This document shows, piece after piece, positions 4,813-37,828 of a DNA stretch of 64,000 nucleotides. The stretch is from Opitutaceae bacterium (GTDB taxonomy: Bacteria; Verrucomicrobiota; Verrucomicrobiia; Opitutales; Opitutaceae), in the NCBI GenBank assembly GCA_041649735.1, contig JBAZMN010000001.1:509-64508 (forward strand), given 5' to 3'. Under the pieces are notes generated by a model. That model had not been told where the DNA came from, ran no database searches, and saw only the letters and a program-made list of their open reading frames with translations. Position numbers and translations under genes: made by a program. The first letter of the stretch is position 1; every line of letters starts with the position of its first letter.

Positions 4813-4887
4813 CCGCCGCTGTACCGTTGCCAATCGTGGGAGCGAATCACGCGGCAGTCGCGTCCGTGCGACTCGGTACAGCGGCGG
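4813..4887. terminator. Convergent-gene inverted repeat (14-bp arms) with a nested hairpin
   Basis: CCGCCGCTGTACCG (4813-4826) pairs with CGGTACAGCGGCGG (4874-4887). An inner AGTCGC/GCGACT stem is present. The repeat sits where + and - transcription converge. Confidence 0.45.
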
Positions 4888-5848
4888 CAATTTCTCTCGC
4901 GGCCATCGTCGCAATGGCTGCTGCCTGTTGTTCGGTAATTGTCGGGTCGGCCGGCAGATAGAAAACCTCCCGAGCGAACAGGTTCGCTTTCAGGTGAAAA
5001 TGCGGTTTGCGGTATTCCTGTTGCGAACTCATCGGCTTGAACGCATGGCGGGCCGCGACGCCGGCGGCATTCAGATTGGCGATGATCTGCGACTGCTGGG
5101 CCGCGTTCATTCCCGGAACTCGTAAATCGTAAACCCAACACGCCTCGCGTTTCGGAAGTCGATATTGCTCCGGGATAGCGCGGTTGTATGCCGCCTCGAT
5201 TCGCGTTCGCCGTCGCAAGTTTTCGTTGACGTTGTGTAAACTGCCGAGGATGATCGACGCGAGAGCGTTCGCCAACCGATAATTGCAGCCGCGTGGCACG
5301 TGGCTGAAATCGTGGGCCGCCGTAAATCCCTGCGACCGCAATTTCTTGGCGAGTTTTGCGTGGTGGGGATTCTTAAACGCGATCATTCCGCCCTCTTCTC
5401 CGGCGACGATCTTATTTCGGTAGAACGACCAGCAGGCGGCGTCGGTGTCTTTGTGCGGCCTGACGCCGTGGGCCTCGGCCAAATCCTCGACAACGCGACA
5501 ATCGTAATACCTCGCGGTAGCATGAATGGCCGTCATGTTGCACCGCCTGCCGTAAATATGCACCGGCATGATGGCCTTGATGCGTTGTGCCGCTCTTCGT
5601 TCCACCAGCACCGGGTCAAGCAGCATCGTATCGTCGCAGTCCACGAATACCGGCTCCAAGCCGGCCATCGTCACCGCTCTGGCGCAAGCGACCATCGTAA
5701 ACTCAGGAACGATGACGCGACTCTCGGGCCGTAATTCTAACGCCTCCAATGCGAGGTGTAGGGCGGCCGTGCCGCTGTTGCAAGCAACGGTGTTTGGGTT
5801 GCCTATCCACTCGCCAAACTCTTTTTCGAGCCGTTCGTATGCGTCCAT
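4847..5848 (-). CDS. DegT/DnrJ/EryC1/StrS-family PLP-dependent sugar aminotransferase
   Basis: NSGTAALHLALEAL and SFYRNK (PLP-lysine region) motifs. ATG at 5848 sits 1 nt after the upstream stop. Confidence 0.85.
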   Translation of the reverse strand: MDAYERLEKEFGEWIGNPNTVACNSGTAALHLALEALELRPESRVIVPEFTMVACARAVTMAGLEPVFVDCDDTMLLDPVLVERRAAQRIKAIMPVHIYGRRCNMTAIHATARYYDCRVVEDLAEAHGVRPHKDTDAACWSFYRNKIVAGEEGGMIAFKNPHHAKLAKKLRSQGFTAAHDFSHVPRGCNYRLANALASIILGSLHNVNENLRRRTRIEAAYNRAIPEQYRLPKREACWVYDLRVPGMNAAQQSQIIANLNAAGVAARHAFKPMSSQQEYRKPHFHLKANLFAREVFYLPADPTITEQQAAAIATMAAREIAAAVPSRTDATAA

Positions 5849-5849
5849 G

Positions 5850-6806
5850 TCACCAGTCCCAGCGGCTCCCGTTCTGCTGATAGTAGTTGATGGTTCGTCG
5901 TAACGCCTCACGCAGCGGCACGGCTGGCCGTGTGTCGATGACGCCGTAGAGCTTGCTGTTGTCGCTCTGCAAGTGCCAGATCTCCCACGGCCGCCGCTTG
6001 GCTTCTGTCGGCACGATCGTAATCGATTCGTGGCCCATTAATTCGCCAATGAGTTTTGCCAAATCGTAAATCGTGACGCATTCTTCCGAACCCATGTTGT
6101 AGACTTCGCCGAACTGGCCGCACTCCAGCAATGCGACCGCCATCCGCACGGCATCGCCGGCGTACTGAAAATCTCGCGTGCTGTTGTTGCCGAGGCGAAT
6201 CGTCGGGCCATTCTCGGCAATCTGGCTGATAATCTCGGGAATCACGTATTCATGCGTTTCCCGCTCGCCGACACAATTGAACTGCCGCATGGCAATGGCC
6301 GGGACTTTTGCCTCTCGCCAACGGACTTGCACCAAGCCGTCGGCGGCCATCTTGCTGACACCATAAGTGCTGTGCGGGCAAACCGGATCGGATTCCTTGA
6401 TCGCGCCTTTCATGTCGCCGTAGATTTCGGCCGAACTGACTTGCAGCAGTCCCTCTACTTCCGCCAACTTGCAGGCATTCAGCACCGACAGCACGGCCGT
6501 AGCATTGATGGTAAAGAAGTGCGTCGGCCGCTCGAAACATTCCGGGATGTACGGCTCGGCGGCGTAGTTGAACACGTAGCGAACGCCATGCTGCTGTAGC
6601 AGGCGGGCCGTTTCGTGTTCACCTTCGCGGATATCGTGCCATACGAAAGTTGCATCCCGATGAATGTGCTTGGTGTGTCCGTTAATCAGGTTGTCCAACA
6701 CCAATACGTCGCAGCCGCGATCGTCAATGAGGTGGTCAACCAGATGGCTTCCCAAAAAACCAGCGCCGCCAATGACGCACGCCTTGCAGTTCTTTATCGT
6801 TCGCAT
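5850..6806 (-). CDS. NAD-dependent sugar epimerase/dehydratase (SDR)
   Basis: GGAGFLGSHLVDHL Rossmann motif and the YGVSKMAAD (YxxxK) catalytic motif. Confidence 0.85.
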   Translation of the reverse strand: MRTIKNCKACVIGGAGFLGSHLVDHLIDDRGCDVLVLDNLINGHTKHIHRDATFVWHDIREGEHETARLLQQHGVRYVFNYAAEPYIPECFERPTHFFTINATAVLSVLNACKLAEVEGLLQVSSAEIYGDMKGAIKESDPVCPHSTYGVSKMAADGLVQVRWREAKVPAIAMRQFNCVGERETHEYVIPEIISQIAENGPTIRLGNNSTRDFQYAGDAVRMAVALLECGQFGEVYNMGSEECVTIYDLAKLIGELMGHESITIVPTEAKRRPWEIWHLQSDNSKLYGVIDTRPAVPLREALRRTINYYQQNGSRWDW

Positions 6807-6815
6807 AATTCGCTC

Positions 6816-7697
6816 CTAAGTGTGAACATCCGCCACGCCGCGCAGTTCGCCGACTGTTGTCGGATGGCATTGCTTGTAGGCCATGACGGCATCCGTGCCA
6901 CGATAGAATCCCGGCAACGGGACCAACGAGAACCCCAGCCACTGGTAGATTTTCTGCATCGGCTTGTTGTCTCCGCGCATGAATCCGTAGCACGTTCCCA
7001 CGGTGCTGCCGATGACCTTTTGTAGAATGTTGATGCTCCCATTCATGGCCGCCAGCCCGCCACGCCCGCGTACTTCGTCGCTGGTAGCTAGTTCGTAAAA
7101 CTCCACCGTGCCATCGTGACCGGCCCGATAAATCAGCGTGACACCATCCTGGACGATGGTATTGTGTGTGAAGTCTTCCGCATCATGCACGGCATCGATC
7201 ATGCGATAGCAGGTCGGAACGGTATACGACAGCAGCAATAGACGATCCGCCACGCGAAGCAATTCTGTTTCCATGAGTCGCCACGTCGCCGTGCCGAGTC
7301 TGTCCTTTACCATGCCGTCAAGTGAGCGGGCAATGCACATATCGAAGCTGCGATCGGGAAACGGTAGCTTTCGCAGGTCGGCCACGTCGAACGCTTTCCC
7401 GGGATTCCGCTTTCTGGCTTCCTGGATAAAGTCCGGCGACAGGTCGATTCCAACGTACTCTGCTTGCGGCAGAACCTCGCAAAGCGCCCCGTATCCACAC
7501 CCGGCGTCAAGTAAACGAGTCCCCGGCGGGATTAGTTTGGCCAGCAGTTCGCGGTGCGTCGCCTGAATGTTGTCCCATGCGCCTTGATTCACGTCGTAAA
7601 CAGAGCGGTGGATTTCGTTCTGTGCCAACGCTCTACGTAGCCGTGGCCGCCAGAATTGCGGATCGTCGATGTTGGTTTCACGCGACTTTAGATTCAT
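6816..7697 (-). CDS. Fusion of class I SAM methyltransferase and GNAT-like acetyltransferase
   Basis: LLDAGCGYGALCE...GIDLSPDFI...FDMCIARSL (Methyltransf_11-like) N-terminal half. C-terminal R-G-R-G..YQWLGF resembles a GNAT. Start is uncertain: 7697, 7724 or 7781. Confidence 0.65.
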   Translation of the reverse strand: MNLKSRETNIDDPQFWRPRLRRALAQNEIHRSVYDVNQGAWDNIQATHRELLAKLIPPGTRLLDAGCGYGALCEVLPQAEYVGIDLSPDFIQEARKRNPGKAFDVADLRKLPFPDRSFDMCIARSLDGMVKDRLGTATWRLMETELLRVADRLLLLSYTVPTCYRMIDAVHDAEDFTHNTIVQDGVTLIYRAGHDGTVEFYELATSDEVRGRGGLAAMNGSINILQKVIGSTVGTCYGFMRGDNKPMQKIYQWLGFSLVPLPGFYRGTDAVMAYKQCHPTTVGELRGVADVHT

Positions 7698-8547
7698 GCT
7701 GAAAAATCTCCGGTATCGGACCATGATAATCAACCACCGATGCCCGCCACGGCAATTCGTCGCCTGGCTGCCACGTCTCAAAGGCGGCTCGGCAGTTGAC
7801 GTACCTTTGCCGTTGGTCCCTCACGCCTTCGCCACGCGCTACGTAATAGCGATGCTTGGCGCTTCGCATGAGTTGGGATGATGCGAACCCAAGATGGACG
7901 CACTGCGGGGCCTGGTCGTAGTTGTCGTAACGCTGAATGGCCTTGTCCAGCGAACGGCCCGCAATGTCCGCTGGCGTGTTGTGGTTGTTCGCGTAGTGCA
8001 AACCATGCGACCACCGCCAGCCGCGACAGTGTGGTATGGCCCAGTAGCCGCCGACCACTTCCCGCCGAAACAGCGGCTCATGGAGGATGCTTGTCGGCCG
8101 CCAGATATGCCGCTGCTTGAGAAGAAAGCCACGATAGCGTTCGTTGGCCGCCTTCATGGTTTCCGCAAATAGCTTCTGGTGATGGTGCGTGTAGTATTCG
8201 TCGGCGTCCAAGACCGCAATAAAGTCGGGCCGCGTCAACTCCGCGACTTTCATATATTCCTGTCGAGAGGCGACCTTGCCTTGGGCCGGGTCGGTGTGTT
8301 TCGACAGGCCATAGGGAACATACACAACGCGGTGATCGTTGGCGGCCAAGTTCTGCAAATACTGCGAAGTGCCGTCGGTGGACAGTCCGGCGTCAGTCAC
8401 CAGCGACAGATTCGCCTTGGCGTACATCGAATCGGCCGACTCGACAAACACCCACCTATCGAGCCACGGCCAATCGTAATGCTGGGCGTAAAGTCTCGGC
8501 AAATGCTCCATCTCATTTAAGCAGAGCGTAGCCAGTAGAATCTTCAT
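7678..8547 (-). CDS. GT-A fold (family 2-like) glycosyltransferase
   Basis: MKILLATLCLNEMEHLP N-terminus and AVLDADEYY (DxD) motif. ATGA overlap with the upstream gene. Confidence 0.65.
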   Translation of the reverse strand: MKILLATLCLNEMEHLPRLYAQHYDWPWLDRWVFVESADSMYAKANLSLVTDAGLSTDGTSQYLQNLAANDHRVVYVPYGLSKHTDPAQGKVASRQEYMKVAELTRPDFIAVLDADEYYTHHHQKLFAETMKAANERYRGFLLKQRHIWRPTSILHEPLFRREVVGGYWAIPHCRGWRWSHGLHYANNHNTPADIAGRSLDKAIQRYDNYDQAPQCVHLGFASSQLMRSAKHRYYVARGEGVRDQRQRYVNCRAAFETWQPGDELPWRASVVDYHGPIPEIFQHESKVA

Positions 8548-9527
8548 GGCGACTTCTCCAGCGATTGCAGGTAGAGCGGCTTGAGGGCGTCCCAACTCAT
8601 GGACTCGGCCCACGCCCGCCCGCGTTGCGAGTAGGCCGTTATGTCGCGTTCATACCATTCGTCGATCGTGCGGGCGATTATGCGGGGATCAAGTACCGCC
8701 CGGTCAACCGTCACGGCGATCTTCGTTTTTTCGACGCCCGTGATCGGTATCAGCGGCTCGGCGGGCAGCCACTCCGTCATGGGGAATCGCTTGCTGGCCA
8801 TTACCAGCATCCCGCTGGCGTAGGCTTCCTGGAGCGGCAGCGAAAGGCCGTTGAATTTCTCGGGAAAGACAAACACGTCGCCATCGTAGAGCTTGTCGGC
8901 GGGCACGTTGTCAAGCACAAACGTAATGCGTTTGTCGCGGTTGCCGCGATACTTGTCGAACAGTCGCAGTATCTGTCGTTCGTCCGGCTGTCCGCGTACC
9001 GTTAAGTGGATCGGGCTTTGCACGTATCGCATCGCCTCCAATAGTTCCGGCGTGCCGTTGCGGTAGTTCGTGCCGCCGTGTCCAGCGTTGTGGATGAATT
9101 GCTTGGCGACCGTCCGCTGCTTCCACGGCACGTCAACGGGGACCGGCACAAACAGCGATGGCAAGTCTTTGTAGTATTGCAGGTCGAGCATCGACGGGCA
9201 CAGATACACGTCGGCCGGAACCGGCAGAGGCATCGGCGTCCATTCGTACATCGGCATCATGGCAATGCGGATTCCCTGCCGCCGTGCCGCTCTGACGATA
9301 TTCCAGTCAAAGGCGTTTTCAAGCAGGAATAGCACGTCCAGCCCGTGAAGAAAGTCACGGTGAGTTTCCACCGTGAAGCGGTTCTCTGACGGATACCACT
9401 CGGGATGGTTTTGGTAATGCGGGTGGCGAATCAGCAGGATGCGATTGACAATGCCGTGGTCGTAGAAAGACTTGGCGAGAATACCAAGCCCCGATTGCGT
9501 TGCGTAGCTGATGGCTCCGATATTCAT
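8544..9527 (-). CDS. GT-B fold (group 1 / GT4-like) glycosyltransferase
   Basis: C-terminal PEKFNGLSLPLQEAYASGMLVMAS (E-x7-E-like region). ATGA-coupled on both sides. Confidence 0.7.
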   Translation of the reverse strand: MNIGAISYATQSGLGILAKSFYDHGIVNRILLIRHPHYQNHPEWYPSENRFTVETHRDFLHGLDVLFLLENAFDWNIVRAARRQGIRIAMMPMYEWTPMPLPVPADVYLCPSMLDLQYYKDLPSLFVPVPVDVPWKQRTVAKQFIHNAGHGGTNYRNGTPELLEAMRYVQSPIHLTVRGQPDERQILRLFDKYRGNRDKRITFVLDNVPADKLYDGDVFVFPEKFNGLSLPLQEAYASGMLVMASKRFPMTEWLPAEPLIPITGVEKTKIAVTVDRAVLDPRIIARTIDEWYERDITAYSQRGRAWAESMSWDALKPLYLQSLEKSP

Positions 9528-10201
9528 GTCAGCAACTCCCGCGCGTCAAACTGTTCGCCGCGAAATGATAACGCTAGCGGCTGTAGCCGATTACCTACCG
9601 AGCTTTCGGTGCCGGTGTGTTGCACCAGGCTCGGATTGTGGACGTATTCCTTCCAGCCAACCAGCTTAAACGCCGTAACGATGCCGCCATCAACCCACTT
9701 GTACCCACGGTTTACATCCTTGGGGCGATTAACCATGTAGGGACTGCTGAGAAGAGTCACTACGGCCTCATTGGTAAACACCAAGGCGACGGCGCCCTTG
9801 CCGAGTTGGTCCGACAAGTACCAGCCGTTGCGGCCGTTTGCCATCGCTTGGTTTTTCGGGAACGTGTAGAGATTTAGATACCCACGTTGCGGTTGCTGGC
9901 ATTGTTCCAGGTATTCGCGCAGGTGCCGATACGTAACGAAATCATCCTGAAAAATCGCGTAGCGGTCGGCCAGCGGGTCGCGAACGTACAGTTCCCACAG
10001 CGATGCCACCCAATTGCCGTAGCATCGCAAGGGCGGATCGTGAAATGTAGACTCCAGGCCGAACCGCTCGAACCCCTGCCCGCTGCCGTCGATGAATAGA
10101 CGCGGCTGCTCGAATCCTGCCAGTGCCAACGAGGCAAGCGTGCGGGGCAGCAAATCGTCCCGCCGCTTGGGCACGGTAGTAACTCCATAACTCCATCTCA
10201 T
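9524..10201 (-). CDS. GT-A-like glycosyltransferase
   Basis: MRWSYGVTTVPKRRDDLLPRTLASL N-terminus and YAIFQDDF acidic motif. ATG at 10201 overlaps the upstream stop (ATGA). Confidence 0.6.
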   Translation of the reverse strand: MRWSYGVTTVPKRRDDLLPRTLASLALAGFEQPRLFIDGSGQGFERFGLESTFHDPPLRCYGNWVASLWELYVRDPLADRYAIFQDDFVTYRHLREYLEQCQQPQRGYLNLYTFPKNQAMANGRNGWYLSDQLGKGAVALVFTNEAVVTLLSSPYMVNRPKDVNRGYKWVDGGIVTAFKLVGWKEYVHNPSLVQHTGTESSVGNRLQPLALSFRGEQFDARELLT

Positions 10202-10473
10202 CGCATCACCCTTAATTTGTACTTGGCGTTTCGTATAGCCATCAACACCACAAACTTGGCGGCACATTCCACAAATACCATGCCGCGTTTTTCGGCTTCC
10301 TCTTTCATCCACCCGATGATGGTGTCGATGTTTTGCAGGCACCACTCGGGGCCTTGCACGTCCATGAGCAAAGCCCGCTGGTCACAGTTGCAGCCCGCCG
10401 TGGAAGTGATTCCATAGCGGCGCAGCATCCGCTTCAGTTCCGTTCCAGCCCCGATTGTCGCCTGCTGTTTCAC
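10198..10473 (-). CDS. Conserved-looking hypothetical protein (GCNCD motif)
   Basis: GTELKRMLRRYGITSTAGCNCDQRALLMD..WC..NIDTIIGWMKEEA is a pattern I recall from glycosyltransferase neighbourhoods. No assigned function. Confidence 0.55.
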   Translation of the reverse strand: MKQQATIGAGTELKRMLRRYGITSTAGCNCDQRALLMDVQGPEWCLQNIDTIIGWMKEEAEKRGMVFVECAAKFVVLMAIRNAKYKLRVMR

Positions 10474-10474
10474 G

Positions 10475-10966
10475 TTATGGCGTCCCTGAGCCGGTCAGTT
10501 CTTCGGGGATTCCGTAGAACTCAAGGTTGAGCGCAAATGGAATGCGGGTGTTCGATCCCGAGTCTGGATTGAACGGCACTCCCCAATCCTCGACTCGATA
10601 GAATATCGAGGTGATGTCCGTTGTGATCGGGCACGGTTCGTTTCCGCCGTGATGCCAGAACACCGGCCGACTAGGAGTGACAATCAGCTCGCCGAAGTTC
10701 CAATCGTTGAAGCTGACGATAACTTGCGGCTTGGTTCCCGGCAGCAACGGCAGATAATAGTCGGTTTCCATGTTGATAAACATGGCGTGCAGATTATCCA
10801 GGAAAATTGAATAATCAAATCGCGACTGCCACCAGCCACCAGCAGCCATTTCGGGAGGAACCACGTGAATTTTCAGGCGGCCAAGGATGCTCGCATCGTA
10901 GGTGAATGTGTTCACCTTTGCGGCCTCGGCTCCGCTTTTCCATGATTGAGTTATTTGTAACGCCAT
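10475..10966 (-). CDS. Hypothetical protein
   Basis: ORF 1 nt downstream of the previous gene. No motif recognised. Confidence 0.55.
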   Translation of the reverse strand: MALQITQSWKSGAEAAKVNTFTYDASILGRLKIHVVPPEMAAGGWWQSRFDYSIFLDNLHAMFINMETDYYLPLLPGTKPQVIVSFNDWNFGELIVTPSRPVFWHHGGNEPCPITTDITSIFYRVEDWGVPFNPDSGSNTRIPFALNLEFYGIPEELTGSGTP

Positions 10967-11007
10967 GATCTAAACTCCAATTGTGTTGTGTGGTGATTGC
11001 TTGGTAA

Positions 11008-11847
11008 TTAGTTCGGCCGCGCTATCCGCATCGGTGGCGGAATGATACCGGCCTGACGCATTTCTTCCGCCGACAACGGGCCGCCCATCATCGGTTGCCC
11101 AGGGCCCATCGGCGGCCGGGCAAACTGTTGTGTCTGCGGCGGCCCCGCAAACGTGTCGGCTTCCGGCAAGTCAATGGCCCCTTCGGCCTTGAGTACGTTG
11201 GCAACTGCCGAAATAGCCCGGCTCTGTTGTACGCTCATTACGATGCCATCGGGCACGGCCTCGGTAAGGGCCTTGATGGCTTCCGTAGCGTTGGGGGCGA
11301 TGATGGCCCGGCTCTGCGGAATCTGATTGTCTGCGGTCACGAAAACAACTTGGTAGGCATACGCAATCATGTCACTCGCTCCTTTGGGAACTTCTGCTTT
11401 TGCGCCCCACTTGCCGACGGGGCACGATTCGGTCGCCATCTTGATCTTGTTCAAGACAGTGAGTTTAGAAAGGTTTACATTGCAGCCGCATTTCGAGCAT
11501 TTGCCGTCTACGAAATATTGGCAGGGCCTCGGCTTCGGGCGGCAGAACGTGTTGTAGATTTGCTCGACTTCCTCTTGGCTTCGCTTCGGCCGACCGGCCT
11601 TGTACCATCGCAGCAGGGCCTTGATGTAGGTCTTTGCCGTCTCGAAGGACACGCCCAGGTCGGCCGCCGCTTCCTTCGTCTGTTCCTCTGCTTCCGCCGT
11701 CATGGGAATCTCTTGCGGCGGCAGATAGCCGGGCCGCTTCATGGGTGGCATGGCCATCGGCCCCAAGTAGCCGTCGTTCATCGTCAGCGGTCTGCGAATC
11801 GAGCCGAGCATCTTGTTGATCGGGTGTGTTGGGTCTTGTGGTCGCAT
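11008..11847 (-). CDS. Hypothetical protein with Cys-cluster (CSKCGCN..CPVGKW) and Pro/Met/Gly-rich ends
   Basis: ATG at 11847 lies 1 nt after the giant gene stop; the track start at 11862 is TTG. Confidence 0.55.
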   Translation of the reverse strand: MRPQDPTHPINKMLGSIRRPLTMNDGYLGPMAMPPMKRPGYLPPQEIPMTAEAEEQTKEAAADLGVSFETAKTYIKALLRWYKAGRPKRSQEEVEQIYNTFCRPKPRPCQYFVDGKCSKCGCNVNLSKLTVLNKIKMATESCPVGKWGAKAEVPKGASDMIAYAYQVVFVTADNQIPQSRAIIAPNATEAIKALTEAVPDGIVMSVQQSRAISAVANVLKAEGAIDLPEADTFAGPPQTQQFARPPMGPGQPMMGGPLSAEEMRQAGIIPPPMRIARPN

Positions 11848-11848: not shown

Positions 11849-14800
11849 TCATGCTTCCCCAATGTGGTGCGGAGTTAGTGAGTATTTCGAGCCGTCAACC
11901 AGTCCGCACGATTGCCAGTAATCGTCAATGATACATTCCAGTTTCTCTGGCACCACGCCCGATGCGATGCAGAAACTGTATCGCCAATTATCGTCGCTGC
12001 CCTGCCAGCACCAATCGAACAGCAGGCGAATGATGCAAGCGTTCTGCCTGCCAAGATTCGGCGTTGCCGACACAGCAATGGGGTAATGCTCGTTGACCCA
12101 GTAGTGCGTTTGCCCCAACACGTTCGGCCGATATTCCTCATAGGTCTGCGGTACGTTGGTGTAATTCTCTACCAGCCCGGCGGCAATCAGCCTGATGATC
12201 CATTCGCCGTTATCCTGGTCGATCTGGAACCAGTCTTTCGGCGTCATGTCGATGGTGGCGAACGTAAACCCGACGCCGGTAATGCTGGTGCTGGTGTTCC
12301 ACGCAAAGGTGATTTCGCCGAACAGCACGCTCTCGCCTTGGATGTCGATGTACAGCAGGATGCTATCGGTAGACTGCGTGGCGAGTACGTTTAGGTCTGG
12401 GTGCTGGTTGATCTTGCGAACGAGGATATTGATGGTTGCCGCCAGCGTAGCTTGCACGGGCACCGTATCGTCCCCGGTGTCCTGGTCTGAGGCGACGAAG
12501 GTAAACGGGACCGGCTCGTCAAATCCATTGGCGATAGAGAACTGTTCACCCGCTTGTACCTGCGTGGTGGCCGCCTGCGAATTGGCCAAGTCCACGATTT
12601 GCATTTCCACGTCGTAAACGAGGATGCAGCTTTCATCCATCGGATCGTTGGGAATGGCCCGCACGTTCAATACGTCGCTGTCGCATAGCTCATTGACTTG
12701 CGTCACGATGCCGCGAATCTTCTCAGTTTGATTGGCGGCAAGCTGGACGCTGGAGCCGTTGCTTACGCCCGATATAAACGTAATCGTGGCCGTGTGATCG
12801 TCGTCAACCTCAATAACAAACTCCGACCCAATCTGCGGTTCAATGACTTGCGTAGTGCTGTGTAATACGTCGTGGTACGTGAGCGTGCAACCATTGAACC
12901 AAGGCGCGATAACATACATGCGGCCCGCGTTACAGAACGTATCCCCGGCGGCCGTAACCACCGCTTGCATTACTTGGCCTTCCCACGGCAAATCAAAGTC
13001 AATCGCGTCGCACCACGCATCGGAGAAGGCAATTGGCGGCTGGTGCTTGATCGTGGTGAGGCCGATCATGTTGCCTTGCGGCTCTTGTTCCCAAGCGTGA
13101 ATCTTGAATACCGGCTCTAGCAATCCCTCCTGTTTGCAAACGTCCGTCATAAAGGCCGTGTTGATGGCGTCGTGAATCGCTTCGATCTGGCGGATGTCAT
13201 CGTCGATGATCGGAACGATAACGATTTCGGAAGCGGAGCCGGCCCCCAGCGTTGCGTCGCAGCCACCGTCCATTCCGTAAATCGTCAGCGGTTGCGTGGT
13301 GTCCATCGGGGCCGTCACCCACTCCTCGAATATCCGAGTGGTGAGGCTGGCGACGATGGCAATGTTTCCTTGCGGGCCGATGTGCTGGTTGATTAGCGTG
13401 AGGCGGCTACTACGTGTCCCCGCTCTCCTAACGTCGATGTCCAAGTCCCTGTCTGGTTCGGTGCCGTTGGCCATCCCGGTAGCGACGATGAACTGCGACG
13501 AATAGCCCAACGGTACATTGTTGTCACCCAGCAGCAGATTCGTCAGGTCGCACGTGGTTTCAGGACCGCCGCCGACGGCCGCCGACATGTAGAAGTTGGG
13601 AGTGCCGTTGACCGCCGCAACCAAGTTTGCCGCAGCGGCGTCCACGTCGGCGCCCATATCCACTTCAATGTAGCCTTCGGGAACACCGCCGCCCGTCGAG
13701 AACTGGTAGTTTTTGGTGGTGAAGCCATCGTTGATAAACACCCGGTCGCCTTCGCTGACTTGATGCGTGAACCAAAACGATCCCGTCGAGTGTGTGCCGG
13801 ACGTGGGATCGACGCCGCCGCTCATGCCAGTAGCGTAAATGGTGGCTGGGGTGCCCGATCCCACGCAATCCACGGTGATGTCATGGTTCCCGATGACGCC
13901 CGCGATGTTGTGCATCAGGCAGCACGTGCCGTCATTGTTGCCGAGCGAAGCCGTTACGCTGAGCGGGTTTGCGTTCGTGTTGACAGCTAAGATTAGCCGC
14001 TTGATCGTATCCTGTAGGTCGAAGCCGACCGCCACGCCCACGCGACTGACGGGCGTACCCGGCAATGACGATGATGGATCAAGCCCGCCGCTCATGCCGG
14101 TAATTGTAAAGCTGCCGCCAACGTGTTCGATGTCCACGTTTCCGGCTGCCAGCTTGCGGTCGTTCGTCAAGTGGACCGTGGCGTCGGCAAGGTACGTGTC
14201 TGGATCGGTGCCCGTACCGGACGCGATGGTGTCCGTCGAAGTAATATCTAGCAGGCGGCTTGTGTCGTTGATCGCAAAGGCCAGATTCGCCGCTGTTTCC
14301 TCTTTGTTTTCGCTACTGATCTCGACGGCCACATTTCCCGGCTGAGCGATGCCGTCGATAACCACAAACTCGAATGTGATCCAGGGATGCTTGGGGTTGC
14401 CATCCCACATTCGCAAGATCGTGCCGACGGTAGGCTGGCCGGTGAATTGGATTGTCCCCGTCGCGGCCGTGCCATCGTCGGTGAACTCGAATATCGAATC
14501 AAAGTGCGTTGGGATACCATCGTCGATGGTGATCGTGTCGCCCGGCTCGGGCTGTGCAGTGAATGTCAGTTTGCCTACCGCGTGCCGCCCGCTGGCTGAG
14601 TTGATTGCCGTTTCAATGGCCGCCGCCGTTTCGCTGTTGCCCCAGCCCAGCGTTACACCGATGTTGCCCGGCGTAATATCATCGCCGCCGTCTTCGCCGT
14701 CCACCATACCGTAGACGATGATATTGTCACCCGTTGTGCTGATCGCCTGATTACAAAGGGCAGACTTATGCAGACTGGTCAACACACAGAAGTCATCCGG

Positions 14801-17524
14801 CGGCACGCTGGCCGTTGCTGAGATGCCGATTCCCGTCAGGCCGTTAAGCTGGAATACAAAGTTGGCCATCGTTTCCACGCGGTCGATGCCAATAACGACG
14901 CCGACGTTTCCAGACAACAATGAACCGCTTGGGCCGTCCAGTCCGCCGACCATCCCGAGAACCTCGAAGGGCGGCCCGGCGTCCGGGTCAGGGTCCGTGA
15001 AACTCGGCCCACCGAACTGAATCGCGTGATTGCCTACGGTGCTGGCGTGGATGTTGACCAGCAAGAACCAATCGACTTCGCCGTTTGCCGTCCCCGTTCC
15101 CGTGCCTGTCCCCGTGCCGGTGCCGGTGCCCACCAGCGAAAAGTCATCCGCCACGATGTCCATATCGGCTGCGCTGTTGATGGCGTTGTAGAGGCTGGTG
15201 GCCGTGTCGCGTTGGGTCGCGCCGATAGGTATTTTGATGAACCTGTCCGACGCTACGATACCGATGTCGCCGAATGAGAATGTTTTGCGAGTATGGATGC
15301 CATCGTCCAAAACAATGAAGTCACCGGCTCGCGGCTGATCGAATACCTTGACCCAACCGTGGGCCGACGTGCCTGTTGTGAGTTCCAGCGTGAGTTGCTT
15401 GCGGCCGTCGTGGAGCGTAATCGTATCGCCGGATGCCGGGTTGTCGATAAACTGGACCGTGCCCCATGATGCCCGGCCTTGGTCAAACTCAAACGTAACG
15501 GGGCCGTGGCCGGTCACGCCGTCGGCCAGTCGGAACCAGTCGCCGTCGGCGGGCGGATACTCGACGGTGATCGAACCGCGTGCGGGAGCGCCGTTGCCGA
15601 CGAATTGGAACGTAGCAACGCACCCGTTGCTGTCGTTCATTTCCCAGCTAACGCCGTCGCGGATTGGTAGAATCCACCGCTGGTAGGTCGGGTTGGAATT
15701 TCCCTCCCCGTCGATTTCGTCGTGGAAATCGAAGTAGTAGAGGGAGCGTTGGTAAGTGGGCGTGACTCGCAGTTCCCAGTAGTCGATGTCTGCCGTGCCG
15801 CATCCTGTGTCTAGGCATTCATTTTCCAGATAACCCTGCGCGTTCGTGTTCCCCATCGACGCGCCATAGCAGTTTTGGCAGTCGGCGTAGCTCGCTCTCT
15901 TTATCAAGTTGACTTGGGCGTAGGAGTTAGTGAAGTCGGCGGAATGGCCGGTGTCGAGGCCGGTTGACCACGTGGGGTCGAACGGCAGCAGTTGATTGAT
16001 TTGGTCGGATGTCGGCTTGATGGCCCCCGGCACCGACCACGATTTCTGATAGGTCAGCACGCGCCAACGCGGTTCGGCCCCTAGCGGCCCGAGAATATAG
16101 GACAGGTCTGCACCGGTAACATAGACCTGAATCAGCGTGTCAATGCACCCAGTGCCGCGTGTCGGATTGTTGACCCATGACCAACGCCAGCCGAAGTAGC
16201 TCGGGAACGGGGCAATACAGCTTGTTGGCTTGGCGTAGAACATCGCCGTATTGAGGTAGCGATAATTCACCGTGACTTGATCGTGCTGCGGATCGACTTC
16301 CATCGGTGACTGCGCCAGAGTGCAATAGCATTCCTCGGGGCTGGTGATACCGACGAAGTTGACTTGAGCACAACAGATTCCATACGAAGGGATGTCGATG
16401 TCGGCCAGATTGTTGTCGCAAAACCGCTCCGGTGGGAAGCAGCAATCCATTCGCGGTTGCCGACGTTTCGACCACGAAATGCCGTAAGTGTAGTCGAGAT
16501 AGTACCACCCATTAGGAAATGCCGGCTCGCCCGTGCATGGCTTTGTCTCACCTCGGCAGTCGTAGTTGTAGTTCCACGGCATCAACGGGCCGGGGTCGCC
16601 GTGCGGGTAGCCTTCCGCAGTGTAGTAGAAGTTCTCCCAGCAGCAGTCGAACGCATCGTACTTGGAGCATTCGCCAGTCCAGCACGGCTGTTCGGACAGC
16701 AGATTTGGCGCGGGCGGGTCATACCAACCGGGAATTTCTGGTGCCAGCAAAACTTGCCCGTAGCCGCAACATGACCAACACCACGGATAGGGATTGTCGC
16801 CCAGCCATGCGTCCTTGACGCATTGCGGTATCCCATTTGGATAGCTGGAAATTACGTAGACGCCGTGCTGTTGCGAAATGGAACCGCTTTGCAATGACGG
16901 CAGTGTTTCGTAGACCTCAAAATATCCAACCACCGGATCATCCGTGGCGATGGTGTAGCGATAGTTGTCGCAGCCAGTGAACCACGTCCGACGAAACTCA
17001 GTGGTATAGCCGGGTCCATAGGGGCTGCCGTCAAACGTGTACACGTCTCCATAGGGTGCTGAACTGTGAACCAGATTCCCCTGGTAGACGCCGGTGAACA
17101 AGTTGCCTTTCGAGGGCTGGCAGGGTGGGCTTGGACATTGGTAAACATCTTCGTACCCTGACACCACTACCCAAATGCTGAGCGGTATCGAATCACCACC
17201 AAAGGCTGAGATGCAACTATCGGGGTCGCTGGGGTCTTCTTCAATCCAGCAGGTTTCAATGTACTCCTGCGATTCGGGGTCGTTGGGGTCGTAGAGAGGA
17301 TTCAGTTCATACCAACACTCAAACCACTCGTTGTAGTCGGCATACCAAAACAGCGTACCGACCGCCTCGCACGTGCGGATGTTGGTCTGGTAGTAGCAGA
17401 GCGAACCCCAGAAGCTGTAAAGCGGAATTGATAGCAGCAATTCAAAGACACTCTTGAACCGCCGCCCGCTCGCGTGCGGTGGCGTGAATGCGTGTCGGAG
17501 AAGTCTGCGGAGTAGGTTCAACAT
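11849..17524 (-). CDS. Giant (about 1,891 aa) modular tail-fibre / host-recognition-like protein
   Basis: Single ORF at the distal end of the tail module. The N-terminal ~560 aa and the C-terminal ~150 aa are rich in Cys, Trp, Tyr and Pro. The centre (about nt 12300-15544) holds ~9 degenerate modules. ATG at 17524 overlaps the upstream stop (TAATG). Confidence 0.75.
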   Translation of the reverse strand: MLNLLRRLLRHAFTPPHASGRRFKSVFELLLSIPLYSFWGSLCYYQTNIRTCEAVGTLFWYADYNEWFECWYELNPLYDPNDPESQEYIETCWIEEDPSDPDSCISAFGGDSIPLSIWVVVSGYEDVYQCPSPPCQPSKGNLFTGVYQGNLVHSSAPYGDVYTFDGSPYGPGYTTEFRRTWFTGCDNYRYTIATDDPVVGYFEVYETLPSLQSGSISQQHGVYVISSYPNGIPQCVKDAWLGDNPYPWCWSCCGYGQVLLAPEIPGWYDPPAPNLLSEQPCWTGECSKYDAFDCCWENFYYTAEGYPHGDPGPLMPWNYNYDCRGETKPCTGEPAFPNGWYYLDYTYGISWSKRRQPRMDCCFPPERFCDNNLADIDIPSYGICCAQVNFVGITSPEECYCTLAQSPMEVDPQHDQVTVNYRYLNTAMFYAKPTSCIAPFPSYFGWRWSWVNNPTRGTGCIDTLIQVYVTGADLSYILGPLGAEPRWRVLTYQKSWSVPGAIKPTSDQINQLLPFDPTWSTGLDTGHSADFTNSYAQVNLIKRASYADCQNCYGASMGNTNAQGYLENECLDTGCGTADIDYWELRVTPTYQRSLYYFDFHDEIDGEGNSNPTYQRWILPIRDGVSWEMNDSNGCVATFQFVGNGAPARGSITVEYPPADGDWFRLADGVTGHGPVTFEFDQGRASWGTVQFIDNPASGDTITLHDGRKQLTLELTTGTSAHGWVKVFDQPRAGDFIVLDDGIHTRKTFSFGDIGIVASDRFIKIPIGATQRDTATSLYNAINSAADMDIVADDFSLVGTGTGTGTGTGTGTANGEVDWFLLVNIHASTVGNHAIQFGGPSFTDPDPDAGPPFEVLGMVGGLDGPSGSLLSGNVGVVIGIDRVETMANFVFQLNGLTGIGISATASVPPDDFCVLTSLHKSALCNQAISTTGDNIIVYGMVDGEDGGDDITPGNIGVTLGWGNSETAAAIETAINSASGRHAVGKLTFTAQPEPGDTITIDDGIPTHFDSIFEFTDDGTAATGTIQFTGQPTVGTILRMWDGNPKHPWITFEFVVIDGIAQPGNVAVEISSENKEETAANLAFAINDTSRLLDITSTDTIASGTGTDPDTYLADATVHLTNDRKLAAGNVDIEHVGGSFTITGMSGGLDPSSSLPGTPVSRVGVAVGFDLQDTIKRLILAVNTNANPLSVTASLGNNDGTCCLMHNIAGVIGNHDITVDCVGSGTPATIYATGMSGGVDPTSGTHSTGSFWFTHQVSEGDRVFINDGFTTKNYQFSTGGGVPEGYIEVDMGADVDAAAANLVAAVNGTPNFYMSAAVGGGPETTCDLTNLLLGDNNVPLGYSSQFIVATGMANGTEPDRDLDIDVRRAGTRSSRLTLINQHIGPQGNIAIVASLTTRIFEEWVTAPMDTTQPLTIYGMDGGCDATLGAGSASEIVIVPIIDDDIRQIEAIHDAINTAFMTDVCKQEGLLEPVFKIHAWEQEPQGNMIGLTTIKHQPPIAFSDAWCDAIDFDLPWEGQVMQAVVTAAGDTFCNAGRMYVIAPWFNGCTLTYHDVLHSTTQVIEPQIGSEFVIEVDDDHTATITFISGVSNGSSVQLAANQTEKIRGIVTQVNELCDSDVLNVRAIPNDPMDESCILVYDVEMQIVDLANSQAATTQVQAGEQFSIANGFDEPVPFTFVASDQDTGDDTVPVQATLAATINILVRKINQHPDLNVLATQSTDSILLYIDIQGESVLFGEITFAWNTSTSITGVGFTFATIDMTPKDWFQIDQDNGEWIIRLIAAGLVENYTNVPQTYEEYRPNVLGQTHYWVNEHYPIAVSATPNLGRQNACIIRLLFDWCWQGSDDNWRYSFCIASGVVPEKLECIIDDYWQSCGLVDGSKYSLTPHHIGEA
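15089..15130 (-). repeat. Imperfect hexanucleotide repeat encoding (Gly-Thr)x7
   Basis: GGC ACC GGC ACC GGC ACG GGG ACA GGC ACG GGA ACG GGG ACG on the coding strand. Confidence 0.9.
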
Positions 17525-18393
17525 TATGACAACAAGCACGGTGCCCCAACAACGAAGAACTTTCTCGCATTCGGCCAGTAGTCAACGATGACCGGCGTAA
17601 AAGGCGGAATCGTCTGGCCTGGTGCCAACAGGTGATCGTGGGCCGTTTTGATTGTCAGCCCGGCACTATTGATAAGCAGCGCCACGGCCGCCGATTGGCC
17701 GTAAGGCATTCCGCCGCGGCGCATAATGAAGCCTGGAAAACTCAACTGCTGCGACATGCGATGCGTTATCATCACGTACTTAGGGCCACCGACTAGCCCT
17801 TCGTAGCCGTTGGTGTCGGAGTAGCCGTCCACGGCCACGGATGAACACTGAACAATGTCACCGGCCCACGCGGGTAGTTGCAGGCTCGGGTCGATAACAA
17901 TCACCGTCGAGGTTGTATTGACTTGACCTTCTTCGGGGTCGTATAGAAATCCGGCGTCCAGCAGTTCCAGCGGATTAGCCAAGGATGAATAGGTGTCATC
18001 ATCCATGTCCCGCAGCATCAGGTAATAGTTCGTGCTGACGGAACCGCCCGCGACGGCCAGCCACTTGCCGAACTTGTCGCGGTTCACCTGGAACCAGCCG
18101 CTGGTAATGGCGGTTGCCGAGAGGTTGTAAATCGCTCGCATGATGCCGGCGGAAATCAGCGTTGGTACGCCGGTCACTTCGACGATCTTGTAAATGTCGC
18201 ACTCCGCTTGGCCCGGCGTGGTGCCGCTTAACGCCGGTAGGCCGCCGCTCGGAGCCTGAGCCACGTACACATCCGGCGTCTGGCCCGGTAGACTGAGGCT
18301 CGTTGACGCAGCTCTATTTTGTGGACGGGCACGCCACTGGGCGAGGATGCGCCGCAAGTCGCGATGGTCTTCCTCAGTCAGAAATTTGGCCAT
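17524..18393 (-). CDS. Tail-tip/baseplate-like protein, short paralog
   Basis: Shares FLTEEDHRDLRRI.., PDVYVA, CDIYKIV, WFQVNRDKFGKWLAVAGGS and RMSQQLSFPGF blocks with the 18393-19754 product. Confidence 0.65.
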   Translation of the reverse strand: MAKFLTEEDHRDLRRILAQWRARPQNRAASTSLSLPGQTPDVYVAQAPSGGLPALSGTTPGQAECDIYKIVEVTGVPTLISAGIMRAIYNLSATAITSGWFQVNRDKFGKWLAVAGGSVSTNYYLMLRDMDDDTYSSLANPLELLDAGFLYDPEEGQVNTTSTVIVIDPSLQLPAWAGDIVQCSSVAVDGYSDTNGYEGLVGGPKYVMITHRMSQQLSFPGFIMRRGGMPYGQSAAVALLINSAGLTIKTAHDHLLAPGQTIPPFTPVIVDYWPNARKFFVVGAPCLLS

Positions 18394-19754: not shown

Positions 19755-19756
19755 AG

Positions 19757-20212
19757 CTAGCGCGGCATGAGGCAGAGCGAAGCACGGATATTGCCGTGGA
19801 GACTGCGAATTGACAGGCGGCTTGCATTGCGTGGCACGGCCCGCATGGATTCGCCCGGCATGATAAGCCAACTGGCGTCGGAATCGTTTGCATCGAAGGC
19901 CACCTGGATAATCCGCTGGGCCAGCTCACTCGCCTCCGCTGGCGTTGGGATTTTGCCCGGCGTGTCGCCTTCTTTGTTGCGAATCAGCAGCAGGCCGGGG
20001 TTGTTGACCCAGCCGCAATCCAAGGCCATCCATTTTTCCGTGATAAGCAGTTCGCGGATGTAGGGCTGTTCGTCGCTGTTGAGTTTGCGACTGCAACGGG
20101 TGACAAACTCAACCGGCTCCCCTCCCTGCCGCTGATGGTAGACGTGTTCGACGATGGTAACGCGATTTCGAGACGCGGGGCTTTCCGCCGTGATAGTCTT
20201 TGCGCCCAGCAT
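19757..20212 (-). CDS. Hypothetical tail-associated protein
   Basis: ORF within the tail module. No motif recognised. Confidence 0.5.
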   Translation of the reverse strand: MLGAKTITAESPASRNRVTIVEHVYHQRQGGEPVEFVTRCSRKLNSDEQPYIRELLITEKWMALDCGWVNNPGLLLIRNKEGDTPGKIPTPAEASELAQRIIQVAFDANDSDASWLIMPGESMRAVPRNASRLSIRSLHGNIRASLCLMPR

Positions 20213-24024: not shown

Positions 24025-24516
24025 TCACGCAACGGCGGTTCCCGTGCCCACCGGAGCGTGGTACACCGGCGGCTCTTCGTCGCCTGTTATCGGGTCGGCG
24101 TTGGTCACAGTGATCGTGACCTTGGCCTCTGGCATCTTGCCCTCTTCCGTCGAATCCGGCTCAAACTTTTGCAGGAAGCCATAGAACACGATGTACGAAT
24201 CGTCCGGGAATCGCAGCGTGATCGACGTTTCGACGTTGACCAATGCCAAGATGCTGTCGTACACGGCCGGGTCGTAGCCGCAAGACATCTGCGAATCGGT
24301 CATTTCCAGCAGTCGGCGAGCCGCCTTCGATCGCCACGTGGCGTTAATCATCGTGGTGGTGTCGATCGGAGAGCCGCCGTCGATCCCCGGCGGCTGGACG
24401 GTCTTTTCCCACAGTTCGATGGACGGATCGGCGGCGAACGCCACCAGCGTCTGGTATCCATCCTCCAGCATGGTGCCGGACGGAAACTGTCTGGCAGTTG
24501 CGGTTGGTGCTGACAT
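24025..24516 (-). CDS. Major tail tube protein (candidate)
   Basis: Position upstream of the chaperones, 163 aa, GGAG SD. Confidence 0.6.
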   Translation of the reverse strand: MSAPTATARQFPSGTMLEDGYQTLVAFAADPSIELWEKTVQPPGIDGGSPIDTTTMINATWRSKAARRLLEMTDSQMSCGYDPAVYDSILALVNVETSITLRFPDDSYIVFYGFLQKFEPDSTEEGKMPEAKVTITVTNADPITGDEEPPVYHAPVGTGTAVA

Positions 24517-28497: not shown

Positions 28498-28510
28498 GTT
28501 GCGGCTTCCT

Positions 28511-30759: not shown

Positions 30760-30774
30760 TACTTCGCTCACCTC

Positions 30775-37345: not shown

Positions 37346-37828
37346 TTAGTGGCCGGTGTACATGCAGTGAACGAGCGAACCAGCCGCCACCAAGTCGGCA
37401 ACGGCCTCCAACGCGATGAACGGTTCGCTTTCCGGCGTGCTGGCCGTGGCAATCAGGATGCCATCGCCATCGTTGACGATCAGCAAGGCGCCGATGGCCA
37501 GTGCATCGCCCGTGCCCGTGCCCGCAGCGGCCACAAGCATGTTCAACTCTTCACCAGCAATCGGACAGTAGAGGAAGCAGCGGTCGCCATCGACATAGGC
37601 GTCCGTCGCAGTTTTTCCCTGCAAGTTGTCGGGAAGCAAGACGGCGATCAGTCGTTGATTGCCGTCGGCATCGGCGTTGAACACTTCCCACGTGTGCCGC
37701 CCGCCAACCGCCGCCGTCGCTGCCTTGATTTGCATGACGGTTCCCGGCTTCGGCGTCCCACTCACAATCCCCTCAAGGTACACGCCCTTCGGGTTTGCGC
37801 TCAGAACGATTTCGTTTCCTTTGGCCAT
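37346..37828 (-). CDS. Head decoration / DUF2190-like structural protein
   Basis: 160 aa, between scaffold and capsid. Gly/Ala-rich beta-type sequence. Confidence 0.5.
   Translation of the reverse strand: MAKGNEIVLSANPKGVYLEGIVSGTPKPGTVMQIKAATAAVGGRHTWEVFNADADGNQRLIAVLLPDNLQGKTATDAYVDGDRCFLYCPIAGEELNMLVAAAGTGTGDALAIGALLIVNDGDGILIATASTPESEPFIALEAVADLVAAGSLVHCMYTGH

Follow-up and report, generated by a model that had tools for sequence, protein, structure and literature searches.

A conserved phage glycosyltransferase and the variable sugar island behind it: candidates for virion glycosylation in an uncultured lineage of tailed phages

The 64,000-nucleotide stretch of metagenomic DNA analysed here (the window) makes up nearly all of a contig that is the genome of a tailed phage, a temperate one, and its virion operon ends in a nine-gene glycan cassette that lies directly downstream of a giant fibre gene. 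The reading we favour, and to which we give about an even chance, is that this cassette carries out cytoplasmic O-glycosylation of the phage's own virion surface proteins late in infection. At its centre is an anchor glycosyltransferase of 225 amino acids, here called GT225, which related phages share. The genes behind it encode a GT-B and a GT2-like transferase, a methyltransferase-GNAT fusion protein, an extended short-chain dehydrogenase/reductase (SDR) and a DegT-type sugar aminotransferase. An earlier reading made from the sequence alone had already proposed that these enzymes decorate the virion, and had named the fibre as the obvious substrate. Comparison with 94 related loci lends indirect support to the first of these proposals and brings in other candidate acceptors.

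The anchor transferase is a core gene that closes the tail module

GT225 had no match in Pfam, PHROGs, NCBIfam or the sequences of the PDB (phmmer), and a profile of 50 family members found nothing among PDB sequences at E <= 10. Its AlphaFold2 model (predicted local distance difference test score, pLDDT, 92.4) consists of a single GT-A domain, which gave 464 PDB matches at E <= 1e-3; the top 50 were mostly GT-A glycosyltransferases and related nucleotidyltransferases. Fold matches included POMGNT1, the Mimivirus proteins R655 and R699, GalNAc-T2 and LH3, with TarP at rank 47, and the top viral match was gp87 of mycobacteriophage Ardmore. Judged by the model, the best matches are protein-glycan transferases and virus enzymes. 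Two aspartates, D86 and D87, are invariant in 50 sequences, and we are confident in assigning the modelled protein to the GT-A fold with an acidic motif.

The protein belongs to a very large family, with 1,369 close homologues, all of them unnamed, and 2,179 clusters at 50% identity in an exhaustive profile search. No tblastn match was found for it in 50,697 GenBank phages, a scan that, like that of the GTDB genomes, reaches close relatives only; the putative tail tube protein of the window was likewise without a match there, and the nearest portal matches among these phages, at 27-33% identity, came from Halorubrum and Brevundimonas phages. The 10 matches in GTDB genomes lay solely on phage-sized contigs or in prophages, and 7 of them were in metagenome-assembled genomes (MAGs) of Planctomycetota. 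The hosts are probably Planctomycetota, a conclusion based on MAG binning and on two or three prophage contexts. As regards individual Planctomycetota MAG prophages, that of locus L011 (15624-18188) stands beside a host heavy-metal P-type ATPase gene, that of L012 is on a 168-kb contig, and L015 holds another. At NCBI, phages of this type have been binned as Opitutaceae, Pacearchaeota or Dehalococcoidia, probably through mis-binning of phage contigs.

Results showed that GT225 is present in 92 of the 94 related loci with a median identity of 52%; the Dit-like protein reaches 36% and the tube protein about 48%. In 64 of 64 loci it shares the strand of the Dit-like tail gene, which it follows at a median distance of 3.6 kb. 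On this comparative sequence evidence GT225 belongs to the core genes of these phages; it closes the tail module and equals the tube protein in conservation.

Most family members differ from the window protein in carrying an N-terminal extension of 100-200 amino acids. Two types were found, one homologous to p76, the small protein encoded separately next to GT225 in the window, and another that is Cys-rich and weakly similar to the centre of p279, the first protein of the cassette. A p76-like domain is fused to GT225 in locus L005 and in many other members, and p76 itself aligns at 43% identity (E = 2e-26) with the N-terminal domain of one such fusion, P0068. Since the homology to these fused relatives begins 5' of the called ATG, translation of p76 probably starts at the GTG upstream, giving 91 rather than 76 amino acids. 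The match of p279 to DUF6171 is weak (18 bits), and its residues 64-149 resemble small open reading frames (ORFs) located just 5' of the transferase gene in L050, L054, L072 and L088 and also, weakly, the N-terminal extension of P0059 (E = 5e-4). By sequence, p279 is possibly a second partner module. The protein encoded between the two, p163, had no match in any library and no tblastn match in the 94 loci, and whether it is a member of the system is uncertain. The three had been described as Cys-motif hypothetical proteins, which is correct for two of them, but p163 has a single Cys. In the family at large (P0011-P0260), the fusions carry interchangeable N-terminal modules, either p76-like or Cys-rich and zinc-ribbon-like, of which the window has the split form, and some members have C-terminal extensions of up to 874 amino acids.

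A variable island of sugar genes without membrane partners follows the anchor

The genes downstream of GT225 vary to a large extent. In 53 non-redundant loci, 485 downstream proteins fell into 278 clusters, with very low pairwise gene sharing. A Pfam census of these proteins returned mostly glycosyltransferases, methyltransferases (including sugar C-methyltransferases), nucleoside diphosphate-sugar SDRs, DegT, GNAT and radical S-adenosylmethionine (SAM) proteins. Because the content is so variable and yet nearly always concerned with sugar chemistry, the cassette of the window is best seen as one version of a variable island behind a conserved anchor. Two other versions (L005, 12158-15822, and L002, 11705-17442) contain genes for sulfotransferase-like, LicD-like, cytidylyltransferase, PLOD-type glycosyltransferase, radical SAM and C-methyltransferase proteins, which implies phosphodiester-linked, sulfated or C-methylated sugars in those members.

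The island is also almost devoid of membrane proteins. The highest 19-residue hydropathy among the nine cassette proteins was 1.52, and none has a segment of transmembrane grade. In the relatives, 339 of 363 (93%) downstream same-strand proteins were without a hydrophobic segment and only one had at least three. It follows that there is no Gtr, Wzx, Wzy or polyprenyl-phosphate transferase partner, and that phage-encoded export and lipid-carrier steps are absent. Neighbouring genes were then of another kind than lysogeny genes in most relatives: an integrase homologue was located within 10 kb in only 2 of the 94 loci, and the convergent neighbours were for the most part replication genes, chiefly of UvrD-type helicases; 1 of 122 proteins there matched Phage_integrase. 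Going by these sequences, the lysogeny module that stands beside the cassette in the window is a peculiarity of this phage.

Gly-Thr tracts are enriched in virion surface proteins

Alternating Gly-Thr sequences are strongly over-represented in the tail proteins of the family, where 526 G/T alternating tetrapeptides were observed against 20.8 expected (25-fold); the next commonest alternating pairs were only 1.5- to 3-fold enriched. GTGT was found in 119 of 763 tail proteins, compared with 13.7 +/- 3.6 in shuffled sequences. Among the cassette proteins only 2 of 446 contain it, and among the early proteins 2 of 122. The tracts occupy conserved positions in a baseplate protein of about 141 amino acids, in the Dit-like protein, in a distal tail protein of about 239 amino acids and in fibres, and are absent from the tape measure protein and the chaperones. 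In the window only three proteins contain GTGT, namely the head decoration protein, the tube protein and the giant fibre.

The putative tube protein of the window has the C-terminus PVGTGTAVA. Its unique homologues number 44, and -GT forms the very end of 36 of them; in 42, GT stands somewhere among the six final residues, the residues that precede being variable. G157 and T158 are at least 90% conserved. Such an ending is rare elsewhere: GT closes only 37 of the 1,287 ORFs of these loci, 25 of which belong to the 32-member tube cluster. In the literature we found no description of tube proteins ending in -GT or of GT-tract enrichment, and nothing relevant on glycosylation in Planctomycetes phages or on the glycosylation of Gly-Thr repeats in phages.

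As for the fibre, its (GT)7 tract is indeed present, at residues 804-817, and a second motif, SGTGTD, occurs at residue 1108. It had also been called Ser/Thr-rich, which it is not to any notable degree (15.2%, versus 13-15% in other virion proteins). No homologue of the fibre was found in the 94 related loci, so that it cannot be the general acceptor, although it may be a phage-specific one. The idea of the (GT)7 fibre as substrate thus survives in altered form: Gly-Thr tracts are a hallmark of the family's virion surface proteins, but the fibre that drew attention to them is not shared. Residues 1-640 of the fibre hold 32 of its 50 cysteines, including several CC pairs, which is unusual for a protein made in the cytoplasm, and the rest of it carries repeated GD.I.L.DG....FEF modules that are also found in a 492-amino-acid tail protein (18393-19871).

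A beta-helix protein (25355-27835, minus strand), whose gene separates the connector genes from the tube gene, has the highest Ser/Thr content of the virion proteins (21.9%) and contains 23 GT dipeptides (2.8 per 100 residues). This composition makes it another possible glycan acceptor.

The cassette encodes a putative amino-sugar pathway and two further transferases

The enzyme assignments of the sequence-only reading (SDR, DegT, methyltransferase-GNAT fusion and three transferases of GT-A, GT-B and GT-A type) hold, as borne out by Pfam, by homologues and by AlphaFold2. The aminotransferase matched PF01041 with 222.1 bits (cut-off 19.8), and in its translation the motif SFYRNK contains the Lys expected to bind pyridoxal phosphate (PLP). 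Its closest solved relative is perosamine synthetase (3bn1, E = 5.7e-47), and its best NCBIfam models were LegC (7e-52; 176 bits versus a cut-off of 420) and PseC (3e-44; 151 versus 423), with 118 bits against the 631 required by the ArnB equivalog. Homologues are present in 18 of the 94 related loci.

The SDR matched PF01370 (161.5 bits; cut-off 20.9) and GDP_Man_Dehyd (148 bits) and displays the GxxGxxG motif (GGAGFLGSH) together with SSAE and YGVSK; 14 of the 94 loci have a homologue. LegB (4e-43) and RmlB (1e-42) were its best NCBIfam models, both under cut-off (TIGR01181, for RmlB, 146 bits versus 365). RmlB enzymes have a catalytic Asp-Glu pair after the active-site Thr (TDE). When SSAEIYG of the window protein was aligned to STDEVYG of RmlB (8shh, T-D-E) and to STSSVYG of the epimerase 6zl6, the Glu was retained and the Asp lost. 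A retained Glu fits a dehydratase or a decarboxylase better than an epimerase, which makes dehydratase or decarboxylase chemistry plausible, and a 4-keto product is also what the aminotransferase needs. From the sequence, then, the SDR is a probable 4,6-dehydratase, with a decarboxylase as the alternative.

The third enzyme combines a class I SAM methyltransferase domain, which contains motif I as LLDAGCGYG and matched Methyltransf_11 with 50.2 bits (cut-off 21.2), with a short GNAT domain. The latter (residues 165-293) matched no Pfam family at E <= 1. Its assignment nevertheless holds, because the homologues pass the Pfam cut-offs and motif A is present: all four full-length homologues (P0262-P0265) have both methyltransferase and GNAT (PF00583, PF13508) matches, a homologue with 45% identity (L004:15724-16560) reached 33.8 bits for Acetyltransf_7 (cut-off 27) and 32.2 for Acetyltransf_1 (cut-off 20.7), and RGRGG of the window protein aligned to RRQGVA at motif A (R/Q-x-x-G-x-G/A). 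This architecture is rare, with five members only among 5.8 billion proteins. In the AlphaFold2 model (pLDDT 89.4) the best fold matches of the methyltransferase were the amino-sugar N-methyltransferases CalS10 and TylM1 (E about 2e-9), and DesVI was matched also; on account of these matches the amine may be methylated besides being acetylated, or instead of it.

Taken together, the gene content supports a pathway logic in which a 4-keto sugar would be formed, aminated at C4 and then N-acetylated, methylated or both. The N-acetylated amino-deoxy sugar route proposed earlier thus stands as to its enzymes and general logic, but not as to a bacillosamine or viosamine type: every NCBIfam equivalog scored far below its curated cut-off, so that neither the nucleotide nor the specific sugar can be named, and the perosamine, viosamine and bacillosamine types were all rejected as named sugars on these scores. 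A decarboxylase route to a 4-amino-pentose (ArnA/ArnB-like) is an alternative. No nucleotidyltransferase is encoded, and the pathway must accordingly start from a host nucleotide sugar.

Both remaining transferases scored just under the Pfam cut-offs, and relatives in other loci passed them. The GT2-like protein reached 19.8 bits for PF00535 (cut-off 23.3) and matched phrog_13126 (beta-1,4-glycosyltransferase, 1e-5); it contains a DxD motif in the sequence LDADEY, and a homologue about 50% identical (L004:14868-15731) obtained 26.5 bits. The GT-B protein reached 24.9 bits for PF00534 (cut-off 26.4) and 25.2 for PF13692 (cut-off 27), with phrog_2170 at 2e-5, and its relative L005:11179-12168 was above both cut-offs (26.9 and 28.5 bits). 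Homologues of the GT2-like protein are present in 14 of the 94 loci, and the GT-B protein is found in 42, mostly adjoining the anchor transferase.

Operon layout and genome context

The nine cassette genes (4847-11847, minus strand; Table 1) are the last of the virion operon, and their coordinates match the gene calls of the source contig. From the fibre to the DegT gene, the junctions consist of spacers of 1, 41 and 1 nucleotides, three ATGA overlaps, a 20-nucleotide overlap and spacers of 9 and 1 nucleotides, which confirms the earlier description of nine tightly packed minus-strand genes directly 3' of the fibre gene. The cassette has the same GC content and the same GC content at third codon positions (GC3) as the structural genes. 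A scan for sigma-70 promoters and terminators found promoter-like and terminator-like sites no more often than in shuffled sequence, with a model that may not suit the host. The sole strong terminator-like structure is a hairpin at the end of the DegT gene (-47 kcal/mol, z = -5.3); none of 200 shuffled sequences folded equally well, and it is probably a bidirectional terminator of the late operon and of the convergent helix-turn-helix (HTH) gene.

Table 1. Coordinates of the cassette genes, the hairpin behind them and the candidate acceptor proteins in the window
Feature	Position	Strand	Length (amino acids)	Remarks
Hairpin	4813..4887			Perfect 14-bp inverted repeat spanning the DegT stop codon, at the junction with the convergent HTH gene
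DegT/DnrJ/EryC1-type PLP sugar aminotransferase	4847..5848	-	333	PF01041; last gene of the operon
Extended SDR on nucleotide sugar	5850..6806	-	318	PF01370, GDP_Man_Dehyd
Methyltransferase-GNAT fusion	6816..7697	-	293	Class I SAM methyltransferase N-terminal, to about residue 160; short GNAT at about residues 165-280
GT2-like (GT-A) glycosyltransferase	7678..8547	-	289	Glycos_transf_2 (PF00535), below cut-off
GT-B (GT4-like) glycosyltransferase	8544..9527	-	327	Glycos_transf_1, below cut-off
GT225, anchor glycosyltransferase	9524..10201	-	225	GT-A fold (AlphaFold2)
p76, small Cys-motif partner	10198..10473	-	91 (called 76)	91 from GTG 10473; called from ATG 10428
p163	10475..10966	-	163	One Cys; putative cassette member
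p279	11008..11847	-		Cys-rich DUF6171-like central domain, Pro/Gly-rich flanks
Giant fibre, candidate acceptor	11849..17539	-	1,896 (called 1,891)	(GT)7 at nucleotides 15089-15130
Putative major tail (tube) protein, candidate acceptor	24025..24516	-	163	Follows the tail terminator gene, 24538-24984 (phrog_123)
Head decoration protein with GTGT, candidate acceptor	37346..37828	-		phrog_766, 2.6e-7

The window covers 64 of the 65.4 kb of a metagenome contig (ENA ERZ27247363, k141_3028779, 65,360 bp), and an identical sequence is deposited at NCBI as a MAG contig labelled Opitutaceae. Nearly all its genes are on the minus strand. They start with a replication and recombination module (RecT-like protein, exonuclease, replication initiator) and continue with the small and large terminase, portal, head morphogenesis protein, a protease or scaffold and the capsid protein; then come the head decoration protein, connector proteins, tail terminator and 163-amino-acid putative tube protein, followed by the tape measure, the Dit-like protein and distal tail proteins, the last of these without library matches, and finally the 1,891-amino-acid fibre gene and the cassette. 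A plus-strand lysogeny module (integrase, the superinfection-immunity protein Imm_superinfect, a zinc-ribbon protein and an HTH protein) converges on the cassette.

Some other genes of the window deserve mention. A 273-amino-acid protein (46825-47646, minus strand) has a C-terminal domain that matches Pfam Tad4, the type I Thoeris inhibitor (95 bits), and is likely an anti-defence gene product. The early region encodes on the minus strand a Mom-family protein (52403-52984), a C5-cytosine DNA methylase (53583-54407) and proteins with DUF5131 (56578-57399; 252 bits) and DUF7666 (62009-62668; 120 bits); a tRNA-??? reported by ARAGORN at 52899-52971 lies inside the Mom-like ORF and is probably a false call. 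The virion operon is interrupted by a block of membrane or secreted proteins (28144-34999, minus strand), among which are a lipoprotein-like protein with thioredoxin-like and CAP domains and an N-terminal FLVGC (29344-30771) and a protein with DnaJ-type CxxCxGxG and SNase-like domains (34058-34999).

A model for virion glycosylation and its alternatives

We infer the acceptor, its site, the identity of the sugar, the order of the transferases and the late expression of the cassette according to the following scheme. The SDR would oxidise and dehydrate a host nucleotide-hexose to a 4-keto-6-deoxy sugar, the DegT enzyme would aminate C4 and the methyltransferase-GNAT fusion would methylate the aminated product, N-acetylate it or do both. 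GT225, aided by p76, would then put the first sugar on the Thr of Gly-Thr motifs, and the GT-B and GT2-like enzymes would lengthen the glycan. For this phage we propose three candidate acceptor sites: the C-terminal end of the tube protein, the decoration protein of the head and the fibre's (GT)7 tract. Compared with its first formulation, the proposal of virion glycosylation has gained indirect comparative support from the place of GT225 at the end of the tail module, the lack of membrane or export proteins, the rarity of adjacent lysogeny genes and the family-wide Gly-Thr tracts; it has lost the fibre as a general acceptor. A broader version, which we consider somewhat more apt to fail than to hold, is that this very large siphophage lineage, uncultured, as yet without annotation and probably at home in Planctomycetota, hard-wires virion O-glycosylation, so that a phage-specific GT-A enzyme would read Gly-Thr and a variable island would give each phage its own virion serotype. 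In that joint and equally tentative picture, the enzyme would recognise the -GT with which the tube protein ends, together with (GT)n loops in proteins of the baseplate, the fibre and the head decoration. It is a matter of speculation that the virion glycan engages the glycan-binding uptake structures of planctomycetes.

Several observations weigh against virion glycosylation. The window's own Dit-like protein and its 151-amino-acid protein are without the tracts found in their relatives. Tracts coding for (GT)5 also turned up in at least 120 other stretches of IMG/VR. Of these, 80 were fetched: 49 encode GT in frame, none has a GT225 homologue and only 6 have a homologue of any cassette-region protein. 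Occurrence of (GT)5 in contigs without GT225 means that the tract alone is not diagnostic, and the specificity scan had little power, long tracts being uncommon even in this family. The tracts could be mere flexible linkers. Relatives lacking GT225, sought as a control for co-variation with the -GT end of the tube protein, were not found, and the Foldseek ranking among GT-A folds does not reveal the acceptor of GT225. Lastly, the cassette of the window adjoins the integrase, superinfection-immunity and HTH genes, and that of L011 is placed at a prophage end beside host DNA; a prophage end or a spot next to lysogeny genes is the classic position of conversion genes.

This last group of facts speaks for a rival reading, modification of a host envelope glycan, such as a lipid-linked O-antigen, capsule, cell-wall or S-layer intermediate. 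The soluble enzymes would attach a modified amino sugar and more sugars to this precursor at the cytoplasmic side of the membrane. Host flippases would then export the product and the phage receptor would be destroyed or masked, resulting in lysogenic conversion or late superinfection exclusion. The phage is temperate, its lysogeny genes converge on the cassette, and the short L011 cassette ends beside the host P-type ATPase gene. A variable island near variable fibre genes is also what the tracking of a variable host receptor glycan would produce, and TarP, a prophage-encoded cytoplasmic GT-A enzyme that acts on wall teichoic acid, is a precedent that figures among the fold matches of GT225. 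However, neither this cassette nor those of the 53 relatives encode a membrane protein, flippase, polymerase, Gtr component or polyprenyl-phosphate transferase for such a task; the cassette is translationally coupled to late genes, from which its composition is indistinguishable; integrase homologues are as scarce near the relatives' cassettes as reported above, where replication genes are the usual convergent neighbours; and in the GenBank-phage and GTDB scans, which reach close relatives only, GT225 was seen in phage contexts and not in bacterial glycan loci. Seroconversion, which the sequence-only reading had offered as its alternative, is thus weakened by the missing membrane partners and the distant integrases, and not refuted. 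We regard it as rather unlikely, but as the main rival.

Another explanation, which seems to us improbable, is that the glycan goes to some other cytoplasmic or secreted target, be it a host protein (for takeover or anti-defence), a non-virion phage protein or a small molecule, and that the Gly-Thr tracts are unrelated linkers. The (GT)5 tracts of unrelated viral contigs without GT225 agree with this, and the varying partner modules fused to GT225 (p76-like versus Cys-rich) could mean varying targets; but neither the fixed place of GT225 at the end of the tail module, with tube-level conservation, nor the confinement of Gly-Thr enrichment to exposed virion proteins of the same genomes would be explained. 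We give hardly any credence to a role in which the transferases glycosylate hypermodified bases of the phage DNA, as in T4-like phages, for evasion of restriction. We know of no amino-sugar pathway with acetylation and methylation in the DNA-glycosylating phages described so far. The phage does have DNA modification genes (Mom-like and C5-cytosine methylase), and glycan assembly on DNA by GT-A and GT-B enzymes of viruses is known (cited in PMC12619734). DNA glycosylation was rejected nonetheless, as no dCMP or dUMP hydroxymethylase or related enzyme for hydroxymethyl-pyrimidines was present among the early genes scanned (in the 64 of 65.4 kb that the window represents), and the cassette sits in the virion operon, outside the replication module.

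If virion glycosylation is indeed the function, self-glycosylation would be common in environmental phages, since the anchor alone makes up about 2,000 clusters at 50% identity, and the trait could be read from sequence: an orphan conserved GT-A gene would close the tail module, and a variable island of sugar genes would come after it. The candidate sequon would be accessible directly to mass spectrometry. Sugar genes of viral metagenomes now termed "auxiliary metabolic" would be virion-building genes and not means of host reprogramming, and phage-host recognition would have a new variable layer.

Comparison with known systems

To our knowledge, experimental proof of virion glycosylation in tailed phages is confined to mycobacteriophages, and it is mainly giant viruses that are known to encode amino-sugar pathways of their own for decorating the virion. 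Temperate phages also have serotype-converting modules, which are of a different sort and include GtrABC of P22 and Shigella phages, Oac, Wzy/Iap of D3 and TarP of S. aureus prophages. The present phage resembles them in being temperate and in having glycan-modifying genes near the integrase end of its genome. Unlike them, it has no polytopic membrane proteins (GtrA/B/C, Wzx, Wzy, Oac) or bactoprenol-linked steps, and its cassette is coupled to late genes and contains a core gene of relatives whose own cassettes abut replication genes.

The adjacency of SDR, DegT and acetyltransferase genes is shared with bacterial amino-sugar pathways (Per/RfbE, VioA/VioB, LegB/LegC, PseB/PseC/PseH, PglF/E/D); perosamine synthetase is the nearest solved structure to the aminotransferase, and the LegB/LegC pair provides the best NCBIfam models. 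Differences lie in equivalog scores far below cut-off, in an SDR without the catalytic Asp of RmlB, in the missing nucleotidyltransferase and in an acetyltransferase that is here a truncated GNAT fused to a methyltransferase.

Another parallel is the fibril cluster of Mimivirus, which comprises a dehydratase (R141), an aminotransferase (L136), an acetyltransferase-glycosyltransferase (L142), a methyltransferase (R132) and glycosyltransferases (L137-L140) (PMC10117803). In the Megavirinae this cluster is clade-specific and variable, and that of Mimivirus puts 2-O-methyl-4-N-acetyl-viosamine on the virion fibrils (PMC10117803). The enzyme set is the same in the window (4,6-dehydratase, PLP aminotransferase, N-acetyltransferase, class I SAM methyltransferase and several GT-A enzymes, as predicted), and two Mimivirus proteins, R655 and R699, rank high among the solved structures that GT225 matched. 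In contrast, Mimivirus is a eukaryotic giant virus and not a 65-kb tailed phage, and R132 is a MycE-like O-methyltransferase whereas the methyltransferase of the window resembles amino-sugar N-methyltransferases.

A further parallel is offered by the mycobacteriophages, where Freeman et al. in 2023 reportedly described virion glycosylation in the cluster F1 phages Che8 and Rita. According to papers citing that work, glycans are reported at the C-termini of capsid and tail tube subunits (PMC11256854, PMC12619734). Both systems encode soluble glycosyltransferases; the transferase family to which Ardmore gp87 belongs occurs in 661 mycobacteriophage records and, in F1 genomes, is located at the right end; and the tube C-terminus, a reported glycan site there, has a conserved Gly-Thr here. 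Nevertheless, GT225 and Ardmore gp87 are only 15% identical, so that the likeness is at the level of the fold, and the genes of the window stand at the end of the tail operon, with a full putative amino-sugar pathway, in an island that varies strongly while its anchor is conserved. Planctomycetota are the probable hosts here and Actinobacteria the hosts there, and glycosylation in the present lineage is a prediction. All in all, the system is of a kind known from mycobacteriophages and giant viruses, and four features make this variant of it new: a GT-A family that is very large, phage-specific and without a sequence-family match, an architecture of conserved anchor plus variable island at the end of the tail operon, what appears to be a complete amino-sugar tailoring route, and a candidate Gly-Thr sequon.

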